This document shows, piece by piece, positions 54,996 through 64,000 of a DNA stretch of 64,000 bases. The stretch spans positions 5,024,001-5,088,000 of the forward strand of contig OY970166.1 in NCBI GenBank assembly GCA_963706595.1, written 5' to 3'. A program made the position numbers and the translations under genes. Source of the DNA: an uncultured cyanobacterium. Lineage in GTDB: Bacteria > Cyanobacteriota > Cyanobacteriia > Cyanobacteriales > Nostocaceae. The number at the start of each line of letters is the position of its first letter. Position 1 is the stretch's first letter. A model generated the notes under the pieces. That model did no database searches, was not told the origin of the DNA, and was given only the letters and a program-made list of their open reading frames with translations.

Positions 54996-55505
54996 TCAAA
55001 GCACCTGTTTTAAAAAGGATACTAAATCGTGAGGTTCTAAGGATTTGAGAGAGTTAAATACTTCTGTTGCAGGTTGAGAAAGGCTATAGTCATGGGGAAT
55101 ATCAATGATTGTAGTTCCCAATCTTTCGGCTAATAGAGACCAAAAAGCCACTTTCGCTTCAGGTTTCATTGCGCCATACTCACCTGTGGGAATTATGGTT
55201 CCGCCTTGTGCCAGTTCTACTGCGGCTTTGGTAGGATGTGGATCAAGCATAATTTCATCTTGATCATTTTTTGTAGCTGGTAGCAAGTCACGCAAAGCAA
55301 AAAGTTGTTCTTCTGGGGAAACTTGTTGAATTTGTGCTACTAACTCTGCTGCTTTTTGTGTTGGTAAGGCATCTATCATATTAGCAGGAAGTTGATTAGC
55401 AATTTGGGTATAAAGTCGCCCCATTACTGCTAGTTTATCGTCTATATCCAACTGTTTAAATTTGGATGCGCTTTGCTGAACAGGGTTAATATTGGTAGAT
55501 GTCAT
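54996..55505 (-). CDS. helical carotenoid protein (OCP N-terminal domain family)
   Basis: FKQLDIDDKLA, EEQLFALRDL, EYGAM..KVAFW..LAE pattern. Confidence 0.75.
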   Translation of the reverse strand: MTSTNINPVQQSASKFKQLDIDDKLAVMGRLYTQIANQLPANMIDALPTQKAAELVAQIQQVSPEEQLFALRDLLPATKNDQDEIMLDPHPTKAAVELAQGGTIIPTGEYGAMKPEAKVAFWSLLAERLGTTIIDIPHDYSLSQPATEVFNSLKSLEPHDLVSFLKQVL

Positions 55506-55844: not shown

Positions 55845-57428
55845 GTGATGTTTAGTATTGACTCTGTGGTTAATGTACTTAAGGGTTTGGCTAAACCTGC
55901 GACTGCTTTGGTTATCAATCAAGCTCAACGTAATGAATCTGTAGTCAAGGTTTTAAAGGAGTTCAAGCTTGACCCGACGCAACCACCGAAGGATGTTGAT
56001 GGTGTGTATGTCTACTCTTTAATTGAGTATGGGGTGGGTAAAGATGAAGCAATTCTGAAAATTTTTAGGGAAAAAGAGATTAAAAATGCCTTTTGGAGTG
56101 CTTATACTGCTAATAATCCGTTGGGTTTCTGCAAGCACGTAGAATATTTTCTTGAGTGGAATGTGTTGGGGGATGAAATCCGAGAATTAAAAATTGATAT
56201 TCGCTCGGAGTTAGAGGAGTTTGGGGAAAGTTTTATTCAGGTTGCTAAAAGAAGTACATCGAAAGAGTTTGAGCCTTTCCCTGAATGGAATATGGATGAG
56301 TATCCAGGGGAATTTAAATCGTTAATTAAAGAGAAAATTCGGGCTTTTTGCGGTCGCAAGTTTGTGTTTGATCAGTTTAAGCAATTCCGCGAAAAAAATC
56401 GGCATGGTTATTTTACCATTGTGGGTGATGCGGGGATGGGGAAAAGTGCCATTGCGGCTAAATATGTCTGGGATCATAAATCACCTTGCTATTTTAATGT
56501 TCTCTCCGATGGTCGTAATCGACCGGAGTTATTTCTGGAAAGTATTCGTAAGCAATTAATTAAGCGTTATCAGTTGCAGAATGCTGATAAGTTTAATTTA
56601 GCGGAATTGCTAGAAAGCGTGAGCAAAAAGATTCCAGATGGTGAACGTTTGGTAATTGTAGTTGATGCTCTCGATGAAGTACAGCAAGAATCGGGAGGTA
56701 ATCTTTTAGATTTACCAAATGTACTACCAAAAGGCGTTTATTTTTTGTTAACGAGACGACCTTATATTAGAGAGACAAAGCGCTTGTCTGTTTCTCCAGA
56801 TGTGCCAGTTGAGGAGCTAGATTTAAGGATGAGTCAGTATCAAGCTTTGAGTCGTGATGATATCAAAGAGTATATTAGCTTATGTTTGAAGCATGATCCA
56901 GAGTATAAGGTTGCACTGAGACAATGGATTGAAACACGCAATATTTTGGAAAATGATTTTGTTGAGCAGGTGGCAAACAAAAGTGATAATAATTTTATGT
57001 ATCTGCGTTATGTTTTGCCGGAAATTGCTCGCGGTTTATATAATGACTTGAGTTTGAAAGAATTACCTGATGGTCTGAAAGATTATTATCAAGTTCATTG
57101 GGTGCGGATGGGGATGGATGAAAAACCCCAGGAAGTAAAGGTATTTATTTTGTTTATTTTGGTGGAGATTGGTACACCGATACCTTGTGAAATGATTGCT
57201 GAGATTGCTAACCATGATGAATGCGAAGTGCAAAATGTTTTAGATGACTGGGTTGAGTATTTGAAAAAGCCAAGTGTAGATGATGAAATCTGCTATGGCA
57301 TTTATCATGCCAGTTTCTTGGACTTTTTGCAGGGGAGAAAAGAACTGAAATCGAATAGAAAGCTATTACAAGATGTGAATCAACGCATTGTTGAATACTG
57401 GGAACGGGAGATGGGTGAAGATGAATAA
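55845..57428 (+). CDS. STAND/NACHT-like NTPase with N-terminal helical domain and no sensor repeats
   Basis: FCGR, Walker A GDAGMGKS, Walker B VIVVDALDE, LLTRR, NNFMY, LPDGL, YHASFLDFL. Confidence 0.85.
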   Translation: MMFSIDSVVNVLKGLAKPATALVINQAQRNESVVKVLKEFKLDPTQPPKDVDGVYVYSLIEYGVGKDEAILKIFREKEIKNAFWSAYTANNPLGFCKHVEYFLEWNVLGDEIRELKIDIRSELEEFGESFIQVAKRSTSKEFEPFPEWNMDEYPGEFKSLIKEKIRAFCGRKFVFDQFKQFREKNRHGYFTIVGDAGMGKSAIAAKYVWDHKSPCYFNVLSDGRNRPELFLESIRKQLIKRYQLQNADKFNLAELLESVSKKIPDGERLVIVVDALDEVQQESGGNLLDLPNVLPKGVYFLLTRRPYIRETKRLSVSPDVPVEELDLRMSQYQALSRDDIKEYISLCLKHDPEYKVALRQWIETRNILENDFVEQVANKSDNNFMYLRYVLPEIARGLYNDLSLKELPDGLKDYYQVHWVRMGMDEKPQEVKVFILFILVEIGTPIPCEMIAEIANHDECEVQNVLDDWVEYLKKPSVDDEICYGIYHASFLDFLQGRKELKSNRKLLQDVNQRIVEYWEREMGEDE

Positions 57429-59517
57429 GATTGCTAAAAAAACCAGAGCAACAACATCCTACTCCCAAAAAGCTCGACTGGGCAGGTATCCTTATAATCT
57501 CATAGAGTCGGGAAACTTAGCAAAGTATTATCAACTGCTGACTAATTTTAACTTTATCCAAGACAAAATTAATTATCCTGACTTTGGGATACAGGCATTA
57601 ATTGAAGATTATGATTTGATTGATAAATTGGCAGAGTCAGAACATCCAGAATATAACTCGGAAAAAGTCAAAACCCTGAAGTTAATTCAAGGAACCTTGC
57701 GACTATCAGCCCATATTGTAGCAGTGGATAAAACACAGTTAGTTAGTCAGTTGCATGGACGGTTATTAGATAAGAAAATACCGGAAATTAAAGCCCTATT
57801 AACACAAGCCCAGCAGCAAACCACTACACCTTGGTTGTGTCCCCTAAATGTTAGTTTAACCCCAGCCGGGGGTAACTTACTCCGCACCCTCTCTGGTCAT
57901 AGTGACACGGTAAATGCAGTAGCTGTCACCCCGGATGGTCAACAGGTGATTTCCGCTTCCTATGACCAGACGCTGAAGGTGTGGAATCTCCAGACGGGAA
58001 CGGAAATATTCACCCTCTCTGGTCATAGTGACACGGTATACGCAGTAGCTGTCACCCCGGATGGTCAACAGGTGATTTCCGCTTCCTCAGACAAGACGCT
58101 GAAGGTGTGGAATCTCCAGACGGGAACGGAAATATTCACCCTCTCTGGTCATAGTGACACGGTAAATGCAGTAGCTGTCACCCCGGATGGTCAACAGGTG
58201 ATTTCCGCTTCCTATGACCAGACGCTGAAGGTGTGGAATCTCCAGACGGGAACGGAAATATTCACCCTCTCTGGTCATAGTGACACGGTATACGCAGTAG
58301 CTGTCACCCCGGATGGTCAACAGGTGATTTCCGCTTCCTCAGACAAGACGCTGAAGGTGTGGAATCTCCAGACGGGAACGGAAATATTCACCCTCTCTGG
58401 TCATCGTGGCTGGGTAAATGCAGTAGCTGTCACCCCGGATGGTCAACAGGTGATTTCCGCTTCCTATGACCAGACGCTGAAGGTGTGGAATCTCCAGACG
58501 GGAACGGAAATATTCACCCTCTCTGGTCATAGTGACACGGTAAATGCAGTAGCTGTCACCCCGGATGGTCAACAGGTGATTTCCGCTTCCTCAGACAAGA
58601 CGCTGAAGGTGTGGAATCTCCAGACGGGAACGGAAATATTCACCCTCTCTGGTCATAGTAACTCGGTAAATGCAGTAGCTGTCACCCCGGATGGTCAACA
58701 GGTGATTTCCGCTTCCTCAGACAAGACGCTGAAGGTGTGGAATCTCCAGACGGGAACGGAAATATTCACCCTCTCTGGTCATAGTGACACGGTAAATGCA
58801 GTAGCTGTCACCCCGGATGGTCAACAGGTGATTTCCGCTTCGGATGACCAGACGCTGAAGGTGTGGAATCTCCAGACGGGAAAGGAAATATTCACCCTCT
58901 CTGGTCATCGTGGCTGGGTAAATGCAGTAGCTGTCACCCCGGATGGTCAACAGGTGATTTCTGCTTCCCATGACAAGACGCTGAAGGTGTGGAATTTCCA
59001 GACGGGAAAGGAAATATTCACCCTCTCTGGTCATAGTAACTCGGTAAATGCAGTAGCTGTCACCCCGGATGGTCAACAGGTGATTTCTGCTTCCCATGAC
59101 AAGACGCTGAAGGTGTGGAATTTCCAGACGGGAAAGGAAATATTCACCCTCTCTGGTCATAGTGACTGGGTATACGCAGTAGCTGTCACCCCGGATGGTC
59201 AACGGGTGATTTCTGCTTCCTATGACCAGACGCTGAAGGTGTGGAATCTCCAGACGGGAAAGGAAATATTCACCCTCTCTGGTCATCGTGGCTGGGTAAA
59301 AGCAGTAGCTGTCACCCCGGATGGTCAACAGGTGATTTCTGCTTCCCATGACCAGACGCTGAAGGTGTGGAATCTCCAGACGGGGGAGATGATTACTACT
59401 TTTACTGGAGAATCTCGCATGTACTCCTGTGCCGTTGCACCAGACGGCGTGACAATTGTAGCGGGGGATAGTTCAGGTATGGTGCATTTTTTAAGGTTAC
59501 AGGGTGGTACAGGGTGA
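57421..59517 (+). CDS. APAF-1-like helical domain + WD40 repeat protein
   Basis: LLTNFNFIQDKI..ALIEDY..LRLSAH..QLHGRL helical domain followed by 12+1 WD40 repeats; ATG at 57421 overlaps the upstream stop. Confidence 0.9.
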   Translation: MNKIAKKTRATTSYSQKARLGRYPYNLIESGNLAKYYQLLTNFNFIQDKINYPDFGIQALIEDYDLIDKLAESEHPEYNSEKVKTLKLIQGTLRLSAHIVAVDKTQLVSQLHGRLLDKKIPEIKALLTQAQQQTTTPWLCPLNVSLTPAGGNLLRTLSGHSDTVNAVAVTPDGQQVISASYDQTLKVWNLQTGTEIFTLSGHSDTVYAVAVTPDGQQVISASSDKTLKVWNLQTGTEIFTLSGHSDTVNAVAVTPDGQQVISASYDQTLKVWNLQTGTEIFTLSGHSDTVYAVAVTPDGQQVISASSDKTLKVWNLQTGTEIFTLSGHRGWVNAVAVTPDGQQVISASYDQTLKVWNLQTGTEIFTLSGHSDTVNAVAVTPDGQQVISASSDKTLKVWNLQTGTEIFTLSGHSNSVNAVAVTPDGQQVISASSDKTLKVWNLQTGTEIFTLSGHSDTVNAVAVTPDGQQVISASDDQTLKVWNLQTGKEIFTLSGHRGWVNAVAVTPDGQQVISASHDKTLKVWNFQTGKEIFTLSGHSNSVNAVAVTPDGQQVISASHDKTLKVWNFQTGKEIFTLSGHSDWVYAVAVTPDGQRVISASYDQTLKVWNLQTGKEIFTLSGHRGWVKAVAVTPDGQQVISASHDQTLKVWNLQTGEMITTFTGESRMYSCAVAPDGVTIVAGDSSGMVHFLRLQGGTG
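57886..59397 (+). repeat. 12 x 126-bp near-identical WD40-coding tandem repeats
   Basis: Exact 126-bp period read directly. Confidence 0.97.
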
Positions 59518-59587
59518 AGTCAAAAGTCAAAAAGTCTATAAAATCAACTTTTTATTGATTTTAAATGGTTGTGTTATCTCTAAAATT

Positions 59588-60883
59588 ATGAACTCACCAG
59601 CGAAACCACCTACTTCTAATCATCCCAGAGGAAAGCCAAAAGAGTTTGAGCAAATCATTCACGAAAAAAGCCACAATTTTGTCGGTCGTGATTTTGTGTT
59701 TACGGCTATTGATGAATTTATTCACCGTTACAACCGGGGTTATTTCACCATTATTGGCGCACCGGGTAGCGGTAAAAGTGCCATCCTCGCTAAGTATGCA
59801 CTAGATCATCCTCACGTTGTCTATTACAATGCTGAAGTTGAGGGGAAAAATTCTGTTGATGAATTTCTCAGGGTTGTTTGTCAGCAATTAAGCCACTGGT
59901 TGGATAATTTAAGAACCCCACCCCAGCCCTCCCCGCAAGCGAGGAGGGAGCAAGAAAATGAGTTTTTGAGCTTGTCTGGTGTTCTCCAGGAAATTAGTGA
60001 TCAGTTGGACGCTAATCAAAAACTGATTATTGCTATTGATGGGTTGAATTGTGTTGACCGTAATAGTCAACCCCCTGGGACAAATCTGTTTTATCTCCCC
60101 CGCTATCTCCCGGATGGGGTCTATTTTCTGCTGTCTCGTCGTCCTTTTTTACGGGAAAGGTCGGGTTTATTAATTGAAGCGCCTTCACAATGTCTGGATT
60201 TGGCAGATTATCCAGAGGAGAATGGGCGGGATGTTCAAGCTTATATTCAAGGGAACCTAACCCCCCTAACCCCCCTTCCCTACGAGGGAAGGGGGGGACA
60301 AGATGATGTGTATGATCCGTGTGGTGTCTTTCCTGACGAGGGAAGGGGGGGACAAGATGATGAGTATGATCCGCGTCGTGTCTTTCCTGACGAGGGAATG
60401 GGGAGACAAGAAAATTACTCCCCTCTCCTTGCAGGGGAGGGGTCAAATCTGAAATCTTGGCTGAGTAATCACCATATCACTGAGGGGGAATTTTGCGATC
60501 GCCTCACCATTTCCAGCGAAAATAATTTTATGTATCTAACTCAAATTATCGGTGCAATGACTGATAATCTTTACTCAGAACCCTTTGAATACAATCAACT
60601 CCCCCCAGCTTTAGCAGCATATTATCAGCAACATTTACGAAATATGCTCCCACCTGCACAACAGCAGGAATTAAGCCACGCCATTCTGAATATATTAGCC
60701 ACACAACAGCAACCAATATCCGCAGAGGCGATCGCTGATATCCTCGATATCGATGAATTTGCAGTTGAGGAAATACTAGAAAATTGGCTGGAGTTCTTAC
60801 AACGGCGAAAAACCGGAGATGAATACCAATACCAACTTTACCATTCCAGCTTTCGTGACTGGATTATTCAAATATGGAGCTAA
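59588..60883 (+). CDS. second STAND-like NTPase paralog (no N-terminal domain, degenerate Walker B)
   Basis: FVGR, GAPGSGKS, IIAIDGLNC, NNFMY, YHSSFRDW; start placed at MNSPAK because the upstream extension is repeat-derived. Confidence 0.8.
   Translation: MNSPAKPPTSNHPRGKPKEFEQIIHEKSHNFVGRDFVFTAIDEFIHRYNRGYFTIIGAPGSGKSAILAKYALDHPHVVYYNAEVEGKNSVDEFLRVVCQQLSHWLDNLRTPPQPSPQARREQENEFLSLSGVLQEISDQLDANQKLIIAIDGLNCVDRNSQPPGTNLFYLPRYLPDGVYFLLSRRPFLRERSGLLIEAPSQCLDLADYPEENGRDVQAYIQGNLTPLTPLPYEGRGGQDDVYDPCGVFPDEGRGGQDDEYDPRRVFPDEGMGRQENYSPLLAGEGSNLKSWLSNHHITEGEFCDRLTISSENNFMYLTQIIGAMTDNLYSEPFEYNQLPPALAAYYQQHLRNMLPPAQQQELSHAILNILATQQQPISAEAIADILDIDEFAVEEILENWLEFLQRRKTGDEYQYQLYHSSFRDWIIQIWS
60253..60442 (+). 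repeat. in-frame repeat insertion with a 54-bp period
   Basis: ACGAGGGAA units at 60282, 60336 and 60390, after an AACCTAACCCCCC motif. Confidence 0.8.
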
Positions 60884-60947
60884 GCGGATTCGAACCGCTG
60901 ACCTTCTCAATGCCATTGAGACGCGCTACCAACTGTGCTATAGCCCC
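60875..60947 (-). tRNA. trnA: tRNA-Ala(GGC)
   Basis: Full cloverleaf GGGGCTA..TCTCA-ATGGCAT-TGAGA..TTCGAAT..TAGCTCCA with G3:U70 identity pair; CCA not encoded. Confidence 0.95.
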
Positions 60948-61129
60948 ATGTGATGCCCTATAAAGCTCTCTCTATATAGCTTTCAGACTAATAGAGGACT
61001 TTCTCTAAAGTTATCCTGTAATTGATTATATGGCAGTTTATGTCAATTTGAAACAAGACTATTGTTAAGTTATGTAAAGAATGTTATTACTCATGGTTTT
61101 ATTTATAGCCTTATTCTATTGGGGTAAAC

Positions 61130-61158
61130 TTGACATCCTAAAATCTCAAGCTTAAGAT
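61130..61158 (+). promoter_or_regulatory. near-consensus sigma70 promoter
   Basis: TTGACA-N17-TAAGAT. Confidence 0.7.
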
Positions 61159-61460
61159 TGATGCAGGTTATAGTCCATCAAGTCAAGTTGAAAACGAAAG
61201 GTTAGTAAACTCTGGCTTACCCTACACCTGTGATGAAAACAAGTTTAGTAATCACAAGTGAATTGAATACCCAACCTACCTGGAGAGAAGTATACAGGTC
61301 AACTCTCCTATGGCTTTGTGCTGACTTTTGGGTGTTTTAGGGACTTATAATTTTCTTAATTATATTCAAATAAATCTTCTCACAATTGGTTAAGTGTATT
61401 TACTGATTGCATGGGGGTATCTGCCTGCTAGAGTTGCAAATAAACCAGGGTTAAAAACTT

Positions 61461-61793
61461 ATGCAAGTAGAAAAATCATATCCTCCTGTATGCAACGACT
61501 ATAAAGATATTGATCTTGAGGTAAAAACAGAATCAGCGACTTCAACTATCCAGTGTGCTTGGCTTCGTATTTATGGTGAAGAGTATGGTGAATACTACTA
61601 CTCCTGTGATGCCCATGCTGTAATTTACTACAGTGAGATAAATCGTATAAGACTTAATAATAAAGAAGTTAGCCCTGAAAATTATACAAGTTTTATTGAT
61701 GAAGACAAAGTAGCTTGGAAAATAATTACCCGTCAGGAATATAATAATATTCCATATCCACCTGGTTTGCAGTTTGCTTTAAAAAAACAATAA
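61461..61793 (+). CDS. hypothetical protein
   Basis: 110-aa ORF with no recognisable motif. Confidence 0.55.
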   Translation: MQVEKSYPPVCNDYKDIDLEVKTESATSTIQCAWLRIYGEEYGEYYYSCDAHAVIYYSEINRIRLNNKEVSPENYTSFIDEDKVAWKIITRQEYNNIPYPPGLQFALKKQ

Positions 61794-61812
61794 TACTTAT
61801 ACCAATTTAATG

Positions 61813-61877
61813 TGAAGTTGCATATAACTTAGAGGCTGAAACCCTTGTTAATTAAACAATCTTTATATGCAGCTTCA
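61813..61877. repeat. inverted repeat between convergent genes (terminator or MITE remnant)
   Basis: TGAAGTTGCATATAA ... TTATATGCAGCTTCA. Confidence 0.55.
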
Positions 61878-61889
61878 TGAAAAATTACT

Positions 61890-63542
61890 CTAACCAGCCC
61901 TCAGATTTAATAACTCATTTACCACCTGCTCTTCAAACAGGTCATCACCATACAGACTAGTATTCCTCCTTCTCTTCCAAGCATAAGCAGCTAGAGCTAG
62001 TGCCATCACGCAGTCAGTAGCCAACCCTTTATCATCCAGTTTATAGAACCTCAGCTCAGTCTTAAGCTGTTTCAATCTATCCTGCTCATCATAAGGAATT
62101 ACCAGCTTTGCTTTCTCAACCACACCAGCAAGATTACTCAGCATTAAAGTTTTGTGATTGTGCTTTTGATTCTTACCTGGTTTCTTTGTGCTGTTGATAG
62201 GGATACATAACTCAGCATCAGCAGCAGGTAGCTCCTTCTCTATTGACTCCTTCAGGTACTGTCCTGAGAGCGCTGTGGCATCATAATATAAGTCACCAGG
62301 GAATTGGGCTAACCTACGTTTAATCCTTTCTATGACTCCATTCTGGTCAAACAGAGGTGTCTTGCTAATTCTTTCAAAAGCAACAATACGCAGCTCTCTG
62401 TCAATATACTGTAGTGTGATCAAAACTGTGCTGTCACCATTAGTAGAACCTGCCACATCCACACCTGTAAAGAACTGTGATGTTGGTCCACCTTTAGGCA
62501 GGTATGGATATTCCAAACTAGCACCATGCTCAGGCAAGCAGTGACCTGTAACTGGATCATCTTCTGGAAAGAAGCAAGTATGCCTTTCACCATTCTCAAC
62601 AGCTTTGTCTAAATAATTACCAGCAAAGAAAGTAGAACCATAGTTAGCAAACTTGCCATAGACTTCTTCTCTGACTTGAGCTTGAGTCATGTTAACCATG
62701 TTAGCTCTAATGGTTTCTTCAGGGTTACATGGGTTATCAAACTGACTAAACTCAGCAATAACTACTGAGGTATCTTTTTTCAGCCTGCGTTCTTTAAACT
62801 CTGCCCACATCTTTCTGAAGTAAATAGCCCCGCAACCAGCACTATCACCTTCCCCTTGTGGAGTTGATATAAAATACTTACGTCCACTAACTTCAGTACC
62901 TCTGACATTAAGTATCTTCATTCTTAAATGTTCCAAAGCATACTCACTGGCAGCCTCATCTAAGGTGCTTATATCCAAATAGAAACCCAGAATAAATCTA
63001 CCTCTTTGAACAGTAGCTTGAAACCAAATAATACTGTTAAAGCAAGTTTCTATAAAAGGTTGCTGTCCATCAGAGATATGCTTAATGAACCCTATGCTAG
63101 TCAGGAAGGGGCTATCATTAACTAGGTTGAGTATTTCATCCTTCACTAACTTTGCTTGCTTTAGAGAAGGCGCACAGTTAATTGACTGAAACCTTTTAGT
63201 GTGATCACCATAGAAAGGAGAGCTAGTAGGTCTTTTCCTATAGAATAAAAACCATAAGTGCATGAGTGCAGTAACAAAAGTTTTACCACTTCTACTGCCT
63301 GCTTTTAGCACTCCTTCTTGTGCATTCACAGCTTGCTTAAGCCATTGTCTCTGCTTAGGATGACCTTTTACTATTGCACCTGTTTCAGGATGTACACGTT
63401 CAATTTCACTGAGGTAATGGTTAACCTTTTCACCTAGAAAATACTTTACAAATAAGTTGGGATCATTAGCACCAGCAATATACTGATATCTTAATGTATC
63501 TGATTTAAGAATACCTTCTAAATCACTTGGTATAGTTAACAT
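61890..63542 (-). CDS. terL: phage terminase large subunit
   Basis: Q-motif HPKQ, Walker A AGSRSGKT, Walker B STLDEAA, coupling motif ISTP, nuclease GVDVA..D.T, YDAT, DCVMALALA. Confidence 0.88.
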   Translation of the reverse strand: MLTIPSDLEGILKSDTLRYQYIAGANDPNLFVKYFLGEKVNHYLSEIERVHPETGAIVKGHPKQRQWLKQAVNAQEGVLKAGSRSGKTFVTALMHLWFLFYRKRPTSSPFYGDHTKRFQSINCAPSLKQAKLVKDEILNLVNDSPFLTSIGFIKHISDGQQPFIETCFNSIIWFQATVQRGRFILGFYLDISTLDEAASEYALEHLRMKILNVRGTEVSGRKYFISTPQGEGDSAGCGAIYFRKMWAEFKERRLKKDTSVVIAEFSQFDNPCNPEETIRANMVNMTQAQVREEVYGKFANYGSTFFAGNYLDKAVENGERHTCFFPEDDPVTGHCLPEHGASLEYPYLPKGGPTSQFFTGVDVAGSTNGDSTVLITLQYIDRELRIVAFERISKTPLFDQNGVIERIKRRLAQFPGDLYYDATALSGQYLKESIEKELPAADAELCIPINSTKKPGKNQKHNHKTLMLSNLAGVVEKAKLVIPYDEQDRLKQLKTELRFYKLDDKGLATDCVMALALAAYAWKRRRNTSLYGDDLFEEQVVNELLNLRAG

Positions 63543-64000
63543 TAGTCATCATTCTCCAACTCATATTCAATTTCTACATCTGCTGATTTAAGAGCAAGTA
63601 AGTCATCAACTCTAGCTTCAGGGTTAGCACTTAAGTATCCTTTCACTAAGTCCTGTATAAGTTCTTTGGGGTCTACACTTAGCTGAGTATAAAGGGCTTG
63701 AAGGGTAACTTCATTTTCATTCTTATCTCTCAAATCTTTTTTAGTTTTCAAGGTAGCATTGATTTGAGCTTGATGAATCTGAATAACTTTAGATAAATCA
63801 GTGATAGCTTTACTAAGACCATTGATATTATTAGTAATTACCTCTACTTCTCTAGCAGAAGAATCAGTTGCAGAAGTAGATAATTGTACTGCTGCTTCAT
63901 ACCTATCCATTAATTCTGTTTGATGATCAATGAGGCGACTTAGCATAGCATCAGATAACATAATGCTATTGTCTAGTAAAGTTTCTTTAGAGTAATCTGT
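63542..64000 (-). CDS. coiled-coil protein, possible terminase small subunit (5' end outside the window)
   Basis: TAATG stop/start overlap with terL; the frame stays open to position 64000 (TDYSKETLLDNSI-M). Confidence 0.5.
   Translation of the reverse strand, partial: TDYSKETLLDNSIMLSDAMLSRLIDHQTELMDRYEAAVQLSTSATDSSAREVEVITNNINGLSKAITDLSKVIQIHQAQINATLKTKKDLRDKNENEVTLQALYTQLSVDPKELIQDLVKGYLSANPEARVDDLLALKSADVEIEYELENDD

Follow-up and report, generated by a model that had tools for sequence, protein, structure and literature searches.

NLR-type receptors are normally built as one chain, in which an arm and a sensor hold the switch shut in cis. Already known, in the parts of the literature available to us, are paired STAND operons with amplified WD40 sensors in cyanobacteria, single-chain NACHT/APAF-1-like receptors, and free algal proteins made of an arm and WD40 repeats. 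The closest precedent for the locus analyzed here is the cyanobacterial paired-STAND/WRAP operon. In the available portion of its description, this operon holds two STAND ATPases, only one of them with an output domain, and a recently amplified, often broken WD40 sensor, and a role in innate immunity is proposed. We analyzed three genes in a 64,000-nt stretch of DNA from an uncultured cyanobacterium of the Nostocaceae (contig OY970166.1, positions 5,024,001 to 5,088,000; hereafter referred to as the window). They appear to encode a receptor cut inside its arm together with a third, sensor-less paralog with an impaired hydrolysis motif, a combination that we did not find described.

The three open reading frames (ORFs) share the same orientation on the forward strand, and the genome holds one copy of each. 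Gene 1 (protein A; ATG at 55848 to stop at 57428) encodes 526 amino acids with an NNH5 domain and a NACHT-type ATPase switch. Gene 2 (protein S; 57421..59517) encodes 698 amino acids, with the remainder of the arm in residues 1–150 and about 13 WD40 blades. Gene 3 (protein B; 59588..60883) encodes 431 amino acids and is a paralogous ATPase with neither effector domain nor arm. The start of gene 2 overlaps the stop of gene 1 by 8 nt in a different frame. Databases label the parts of this family only as NACHT, AAA, or WD40 proteins.

Residues 4–138 of A matched NNH5 (E 7e-51) and were followed by a STAND ATPase matching NPHP3_N, NACHT, and AAA, in the order nucleotide-binding domain, helical domain 1, winged helix, and a last helix (residues 505–525). 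Walker A and Walker B are both intact, and the NACHT Walker B signature D[GAS]hDE, as defined in the available text of bioRxiv 2022.07.19.500537, was present in all 54 A rows. The Pfam NACHT model scored 25.9 bits (E 1e-5) against a curated cut-off of 26.7, NPHP3_N exceeded its own cut-off, and neither gene 1 nor gene 3 matched NB-ARC at E up to 0.05. The structural model of A (predicted local distance difference test [pLDDT] score of 88) matched STAND/NLR and apoptosome chains across residues 148–526. These included 9h2l (Z 17.9, root-mean-square deviation [rmsd] 4.6, 325 residues aligned), APAF-1 (3j2t; aligned to its residue 472, Z 12.8, rmsd 5.5, 319 residues), and 8fvu_B (10% identity). 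A sequence search of solved structures gave weak APAF-1 matches for A (E 0.008) and nothing useful for the sensor arm. The gene is under purifying selection, with ratios of nonsynonymous to synonymous substitution (dN/dS) of 0.23, 0.43, and 0.13 in three groups.

Gene 1 had been predicted from the sequence to end in a winged helix and to stop right before the sensor half. The winged helix is there, but one arm helix follows it. In sequence alignment, the arm of APAF-1 (HD2) starts near residue 452, and in fused single-chain cyanobacterial APAF-1s, the APAF1_C match begins about 20 residues ahead of the part matched by S. The last helix of A aligns with APAF-1 up to residue 472. Together, these positions place the first arm helix on A and the remainder on S. 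By these alignments, the chain is cut inside an APAF-1-type arm, with A keeping the first arm helix. In two single-chain relatives, P0007 and P0009, the tail of A continues directly into the start of S, and intact A proteins extend 23–51 residues beyond the winged-helix end motif. The terminal helix and an acidic tail are encoded at 57360..57425 on the forward strand (approximate, from the helix limits of the model), and this piece is the probable docking site for S. The charge of the A tail and that of the S start were negatively correlated (Spearman −0.46, 51 pairs), and their distances were positively correlated (0.80; partial 0.63); both values carry little weight because related sequences are not independent and the tail and the start are neighbors in the DNA. 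In two A-type ATPases, P0005 and P0008, the last helix is retained and is followed by a CHAT protease domain in place of a sensor.

Conservation of the split was analyzed in 70 loci (L031–L100, one duplicate dropped) and the window. The loci were picked by likeness to A, and the set therefore leans to close forms. A separate arm-bearing ORF lay within 700 nt of 52 of the 60 A-type frames of at least 330 amino acids, and within 30 nt in 40 of those 52. None of the 60 A ORFs combined ATPase, arm, and WD40 repeats in one frame; the remaining eight frames were rearranged, broken, or at a contig end. The A/S junctions vary, with overlaps of 4, 8, or more nt and gaps of up to 548 nt. Two independent metagenome contigs run across the A/S junction without a gap, each differing by 11 substitutions. 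A frameshift or assembly error between genes 1 and 2 was rejected on these grounds, and the separation of the two genes that the original prediction had proposed is confirmed: the split is real and old. Among shorter database proteins (289–921 amino acids), 1,601 had a match to the ATPase part with an E value of 1e-15 or lower. A search of proteins of 922–2,630 amino acids, weak by design, gave 43 matches, with P0007 and P0009 the only close complete single chains. On the tree, P0007 falls outside the split forms and P0009 is nested among them, so P0009 looks like a re-fusion. These two chains, together with broken copies that are common and also occur in the same genus, would suit a single-chain receptor in decay, in which a frameshift had separated gene 1 from gene 2 and gene 3 was a dead duplicate. 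The varied junctions of the 52 split loci, the intact junction in two contigs, the purifying selection on both A and B, and the re-fused appearance of P0009 make this extremely improbable.

Linkage of gene 3 in other genomes, also predicted at the outset, was found: a B-type frame occurs in the same locus for 33 of the 52 split pairs. By hand count, 23 of 60 related genomes have the split pair and 13 have the linked triad; in four of the ten pair-only genomes, the pair lies at a contig end. One genome (G025; L035 3287-4858 and L111 1342-6712) has an A gene with no adjacent sensor; a sensor, a further WD40 gene, and a B gene lie 12–17 kb away on the opposite strand, an arrangement that may reflect either an inversion or action in trans.

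Gene 2 had been proposed to start in the last codons of gene 1 and to supply an APAF-1-type arm and WD40 repeats, and the 8-nt overlap and the APAF1_C matches bear this out. The APAF1_C match of the window copy is below the Pfam cut-off (E 0.0026); 30 of 49 sensor family members matched this domain at E up to 0.01 (best 1e-9), and the sensor family profile retrieves NB-ARC–APAF1_C–WD40 chains. The array of 126-bp WD40 units (57885..59384, forward strand; 11.9 copies, 94% matches) consists of 12 near-identical units and a divergent last unit. Differences among the 12 units cluster in six codons per unit, and all of them change the residue. Among the 23 sensor genes that have four or more regular repeats, the nonsynonymous and synonymous differences (pN/pS) were 0.40/0.41 at the six codons and 0.11/0.30 elsewhere, a pattern that indicates relaxed or diversifying change but is no proof of positive selection. 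Sensor frames range from 150 to 1119 amino acids, and the sensor is often frameshifted.

Several loci carry other arrangements around the sensor. Tandem pairs of arm-bearing sensor genes occur at L045, L090, and L032, and the first gene of the pair is sometimes broken. A gene for a Uma2-type endonuclease lies antisense between sensor and B in L031 (6738-7313) and also in L037, L065, L074–L077, and L079. Beside a truncated A gene, a phage-lysozyme/peptidoglycan-binding gene takes the place of the sensor in L093 (8628-10157) and L094 (9574-11109).

Gene 3 was correctly recognized in the original prediction as a paralogous NTPase that lacks the N-terminal domain; it is 35–36% identical to the ATPase part of gene 1. 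The B rows (38, one of them sensor-fused) form a single clade with a support of 100, nested among A proteins. All 37 complete rows retain Walker A, have lost the last glutamate of Walker B (full D[GAS]hDE in 0 of 37), and end 13–23 residues past the winged-helix motif, with the arm helix absent. B is under purifying selection (dN/dS of 0.27, 0.29, and 0.20 in three groups). These sequence features mark B as a dedicated, specialised subunit rather than an alternative partner of equal rank. Other strains skip 76–121 nt at 60275..60411, where the window copy carries a 54-bp in-frame tandem insert (forward strand, 2.6 copies) in helical domain 1 that is absent or different in those strains; this stretch is thus an insertion hot spot. 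In L053 (5356-7617), a truncated A is fused to B in a protein of 749 amino acids, with no sensor between them.

A modular receptor, as first proposed, stands, but the accompanying idea that one sensor docks interchangeably on either ATPase to give two receptors is not favored. B does sit beside a sensor as a rule, with a WD40 ORF upstream of 37 of 38 full-length B genes, and it shares the winged-helix end motif with A. It has also been repeatedly fused to the sensor: 11 of 14 long relatives of B are S-B fusions, and a quick tree gives five changes as their origin, at least four of them forced by well-supported branches. The fusions, however, place B behind the propellers and not ahead of the arm. 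Across 30 triads, in which kin are not independent, B distances tracked the ATPase body of A (partial r 0.55) above the sensor arm (0.38). Interchangeable docking is quite improbable because B lacks both the arm helix and the Walker B glutamate (37 of 37) and was modeled against the ATPase of A. A receptor made of B and S would also have nothing to fire, since B has no output domain.

We modeled a complex of A (residues 148–526), the arm of S, and B, scoring B and including three controls. The score for B was 0.73, and the best of the three controls reached 0.00; the score mark used is met by 116 of 157 solved complexes and by two of 215 mismatched pairs. The runs shared at least 73% of contacts, the pLDDT of B was at least 72, and the listed contacts of B were to A only, joining B residues 127–138, 161–176, and 189–199 with A residues 154–162, 218–223, and 408–420. 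One control, in which gene 1 was replaced and B was left with the sensor arm minus the propellers, scored 0.00, which neither supports nor opposes binding of B to the arm. Two motifs on the B interface (residues 169–175 and 193–197) are invariant in 37 of 37 rows. The interface columns, which are contiguous, are more conserved in B than in A (+0.17), a difference reached by none of 20,000 random column sets. In the model, B is thus predicted to pack one invariant face on the nucleotide-binding side of A.

In the available part of a study of NAIP/NLRC4 (PMC10803261), basic residues on either side of the sensor-1 arginine serve as the donating side. The receiving side is made up of the start of the nucleotide-binding domain, a loop that follows Walker A, and the first helix of the winged helix. 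Mapped by position along the fold, and not by superposition, the B face would correspond to the donating (catalytic) side and the A face to the receiving (receptor) side.

We tentatively read the locus, at somewhat less than an even chance, as a three-protein NLR-type conflict or immune receptor in which B acts as a NAIP-like primer and S as a detachable inhibitor-sensor. The case for one receptor system made of all three proteins is much firmer than that for the direction in which B acts or for the nature of the trigger. STAND switches are kept shut by arm and sensor, as stated in the accessible portion of one source (PMC6468293). S would dock on the last helix of A and hold it shut in trans. 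B would bind ATP and hydrolyze it poorly and, being armless, would stay open. A ligand on the propellers, or displacement or destruction of S, would free the receiving face of A, and B would then prime A as NAIP primes NLRC4. A would then oligomerize and cluster its N-terminal domain, here NNH5 and in relatives a HEPN nuclease, a kinase, EAD adaptors, or helix-turn-helix (HTH) domains. The least supported step is the trigger, most likely a phage protein or a protein of another invader. Both the priming direction of B and an anti-phage role are thus what we infer.

The same three-part receptor could instead use gene 3 as a brake, with B an effector-less decoy on the nucleotide-binding face of A that blocks A–A assembly or resets A and so raises the firing threshold. 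B has no output domain and is predicted to sit on the face that A needs for ring closure, and dyads that lack B suggest that A and S can work alone. A detachable and often frameshifted sensor (150–1119 amino acids) might also call for a safety catch, and paralogous pro/anti pairs are common in death pathways, as the available text of PMC8195603 has it. A chain-terminating cap should, however, retain the receiving face, whereas the face retained in B maps by position to the donating side. Broken B remnants after loss of A and S, seen in five of ten same-genus genomes, fit either role and do not single out a brake. We regard this role for B as rather unlikely, though the strongest alternative, and keep priming by B as the working reading.

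Several observations weigh against priming by B or against a defensive role. The pass of the complex model may reflect memory of solved STAND oligomers, and close cousins of true partners pass as well (10 of 12 colicin pairs). The calibration is only roughly valid for three chains with alignments of our own making, and the modeling covered B with A and the arm of S, so the score does not bear on specificity over A–A or B–B pairing. Conservation on the receptor side of B is lower, but not significantly so (p 0.28). Ten A proteins on deeper branches lack a linked B, so the basic design does not need B. At the six variable codons, pN is about equal to pS and not higher, and these codons were chosen from the repeats of the window itself. 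A fold search with NNH5 against 48,161 chains gave no match (best Z 5.2), which is no proof of a new fold. HTH outputs permit a purely regulatory role, and the recurrent neighbors, judged by eye, mostly look like housekeeping genes and not defense islands, in a locus that looks vertically inherited.

These last two points bear on another alternative, a ligand-sensing regulator of development or stress, similar to MalT or AfsR, whose three parts tune transcription or signaling outside defense. HTH domains of the XRE/Cro and LuxR types head several A proteins and are also present in many close database matches. The surroundings are stable and housekeeping, the A and B trees are congruent at the tRNA-Ala site, and defense and non-defense STAND clades are interspersed, as the accessible part of PMC13581612 notes. 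Across 20 N-terminal regions scanned in relatives (19 A and one B), those of A matched HEPN_Swt1, a kinase, EAD4, HTH types, EAD10 in two cases, or part of NNH5, or gave no match that passed the cut-off; TIR was absent from all 20 and from gene 1. The Atlas matches of NNH5 are unnamed clusters and NNH2. Some loci adjoin VMAP/EAD10 genes or a TRADD-N-associated membrane gene. The HEPN, EAD4, and EAD10 outputs and the VMAP neighbors are features of conflict systems and argue against a regulator, as do the homogenized WD40 arrays with variable binding positions, the repeated loss, and the frequent breakage, which fit an arms race. Bacterial NACHT defense proteins can likewise carry HTH outputs, according to the available text of bioRxiv 2022.07.19.500537. 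A purely regulatory function is improbable next to the conflict or immune receptor proposed above.

Two subgroups have further neighbors of their own. A small cyanobacterial gene for a TRADD-N-associated two-helix membrane domain precedes one triad subgroup (L047 816-1187, with a Pfam match; L048–L052; L067). L058 and L059 hold EAD10-headed A+S pairs amid further EAD10 genes, and L059 adjoins VMAP and NB-ARC genes.

The triad had been placed in a prophage context, with a hint of recent transfer, and neither claim was upheld. A tRNA-Ala(GGC) gene lies on the reverse strand at 60874..60948, its 3' end overlapping the stop codon of gene 3. Beyond it, a 20.3-kb prophage-like element extends between 44-bp direct repeats (60904..60947 at its left end; second copy at genome position 5105171, outside the window) and carries terminase, head, tail-fiber, and antirepressor genes and, by eye, one integrase-like ORF. 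The repeat is beyond gene 3 and the three genes are outside the element, so cargo of the prophage was rejected; the prophage is a separate, later insertion. Genomes of Nostoc carry the triad at the same tRNA-Ala site. Among ten same-genus genomes, five have broken B remnants by the same tRNA with A and S deleted, and four have no match. Genes 1 and 2 contain no HIP1 site, as originally noted, but this is not notable: 938 of 11,132 genome windows of the same length (8%) also have none, or 2,308 of 11,135 (21%) when repeats are counted once. Absence of HIP1 was thus rejected as a sign of transfer, being within chance.

Other features of the surroundings were recorded. Read antisense, the 3' end of the tRNA-Ala gene forms the last codons and stop of gene 3 (60874-60883). 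The att repeat of the element (60904-64000, continuing to genome position 5105214) copies the 5' part of tRNA-Ala, not its 3' end, and two overlapping ORFs of the element with weak portal and adaptor matches may be one broken gene. On the other side, a gene for an orange carotenoid protein N-terminal domain (54996-55505) is divergent from gene 1, and in other strains, deletions that take out genes 1 and 2 have an endpoint within or close to this gene. No RNA run spans half of the stretch; the one aligned to it, from a strain without genes 1 and 2, takes in just gene 3 and the last part of gene 2 and so says nothing about transcription of the intact operon.

Searches for named systems gave no system-level match in PADLOC or NCBIfam, where the ATPase region matched Avs1b and Avs2 weakly (Avs1b at 22.8 bits against a cut-off of 1500) and PADLOC covers only the ATPase or generic WD40 repeats. 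The literature searched, with supplementary tables and some older papers outside it, holds no description of the triad, and the clade tables of PMC13581612 and of the bNACHT paper may list these proteins. The iSTAND vWA-MoxR ternary systems, in which, according to the accessible parts of PMC7159879 and PMC8195603, an inactive STAND accompanies genes for vWA and MoxR, were not matched: the neighbors in the window are the orange carotenoid N-terminal gene and the tRNA, and B keeps Walker A. One relative, L059, does adjoin VMAP genes.

The locus shares individual traits with several described families; what follows rests on the available portions of the papers cited. bNACHT/Avs proteins have the NACHT signature, swappable N-terminal outputs (NNH, HEPN, kinase, EAD, and HTH), a propeller sensor, and a cyanobacterial expansion (bioRxiv 2022.07.19.500537, PMC13581612). 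They are described there as single chains, rarely as operons, whereas none of the 60 A ORFs here carries the arm and WD40 repeats in frame. APAF-1 and its cyanobacterial single-chain orthologues (NB-ARC, APAF1_C, and WD40) share a homologous arm, a WD40 sensor, and the same fold order as A and S joined (PMC13581612, PMC8891106), but A has a NACHT-type Walker B, no NB-ARC match, a cut inside the arm, and a third subunit. Fungal HNWD/HET-E proteins and repetitive prokaryotic WD40 proteins likewise have near-identical units, few variable positions, and changing repeat number (PMC4986451, PMC5587647); in those, the repeats are fused to NACHT. Green-algal stand-alone APAF1_C/WD40 proteins resemble gene 2 in being a free arm with WD40 repeats, but they are derived from NB-ARC-type chains, and the text of PMC8891106 available to us reports no adjacent ATPase partner.

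With NAIP/NLRC4, the likeness would lie in a NACHT paralog without an output domain that engages an output-bearing NACHT through one face (PMC10803261, available part). There, NAIP has its own sensor, whereas here the sensor is a third chain that would dock on the output partner, and the two are not close kin in sequence (10% identity for the 8fvu_B match). The widest reading is an inflammasome-like machine that spreads sensing, priming, and output over three exchangeable proteins, with the detachable sensor as inhibitor, an always-open, ATP-locked primer, and an independent bacterial origin of NAIP/NLRC4-style nucleation. On this reading, the receptor would fire once the sensor bound its ligand or was lost, which would give direct as well as guard-type sensing and would let sensors be exchanged or provided in trans. 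We consider it possible but doubtful. If gene 3 does prime, nucleated activation arose independently in bacteria. The natural and widespread cut within the arm would allow the role of the sensor half to be tested directly, sensors to be swapped, and the tuning of firing by a sensor-less paralog to be studied.

Against its closest precedent, the locus differs in how these parts are divided. In the paired-STAND/WRAP operon, as far as its available description extends, a STAND chain ends in the propeller and the output is TIR. Here, a free propeller protein would complete the arm of the output ATPase, the second ATPase is armless and sensor-less or lies behind propellers, and the outputs are NNH5, HTH, HEPN, kinase, and EAD domains.

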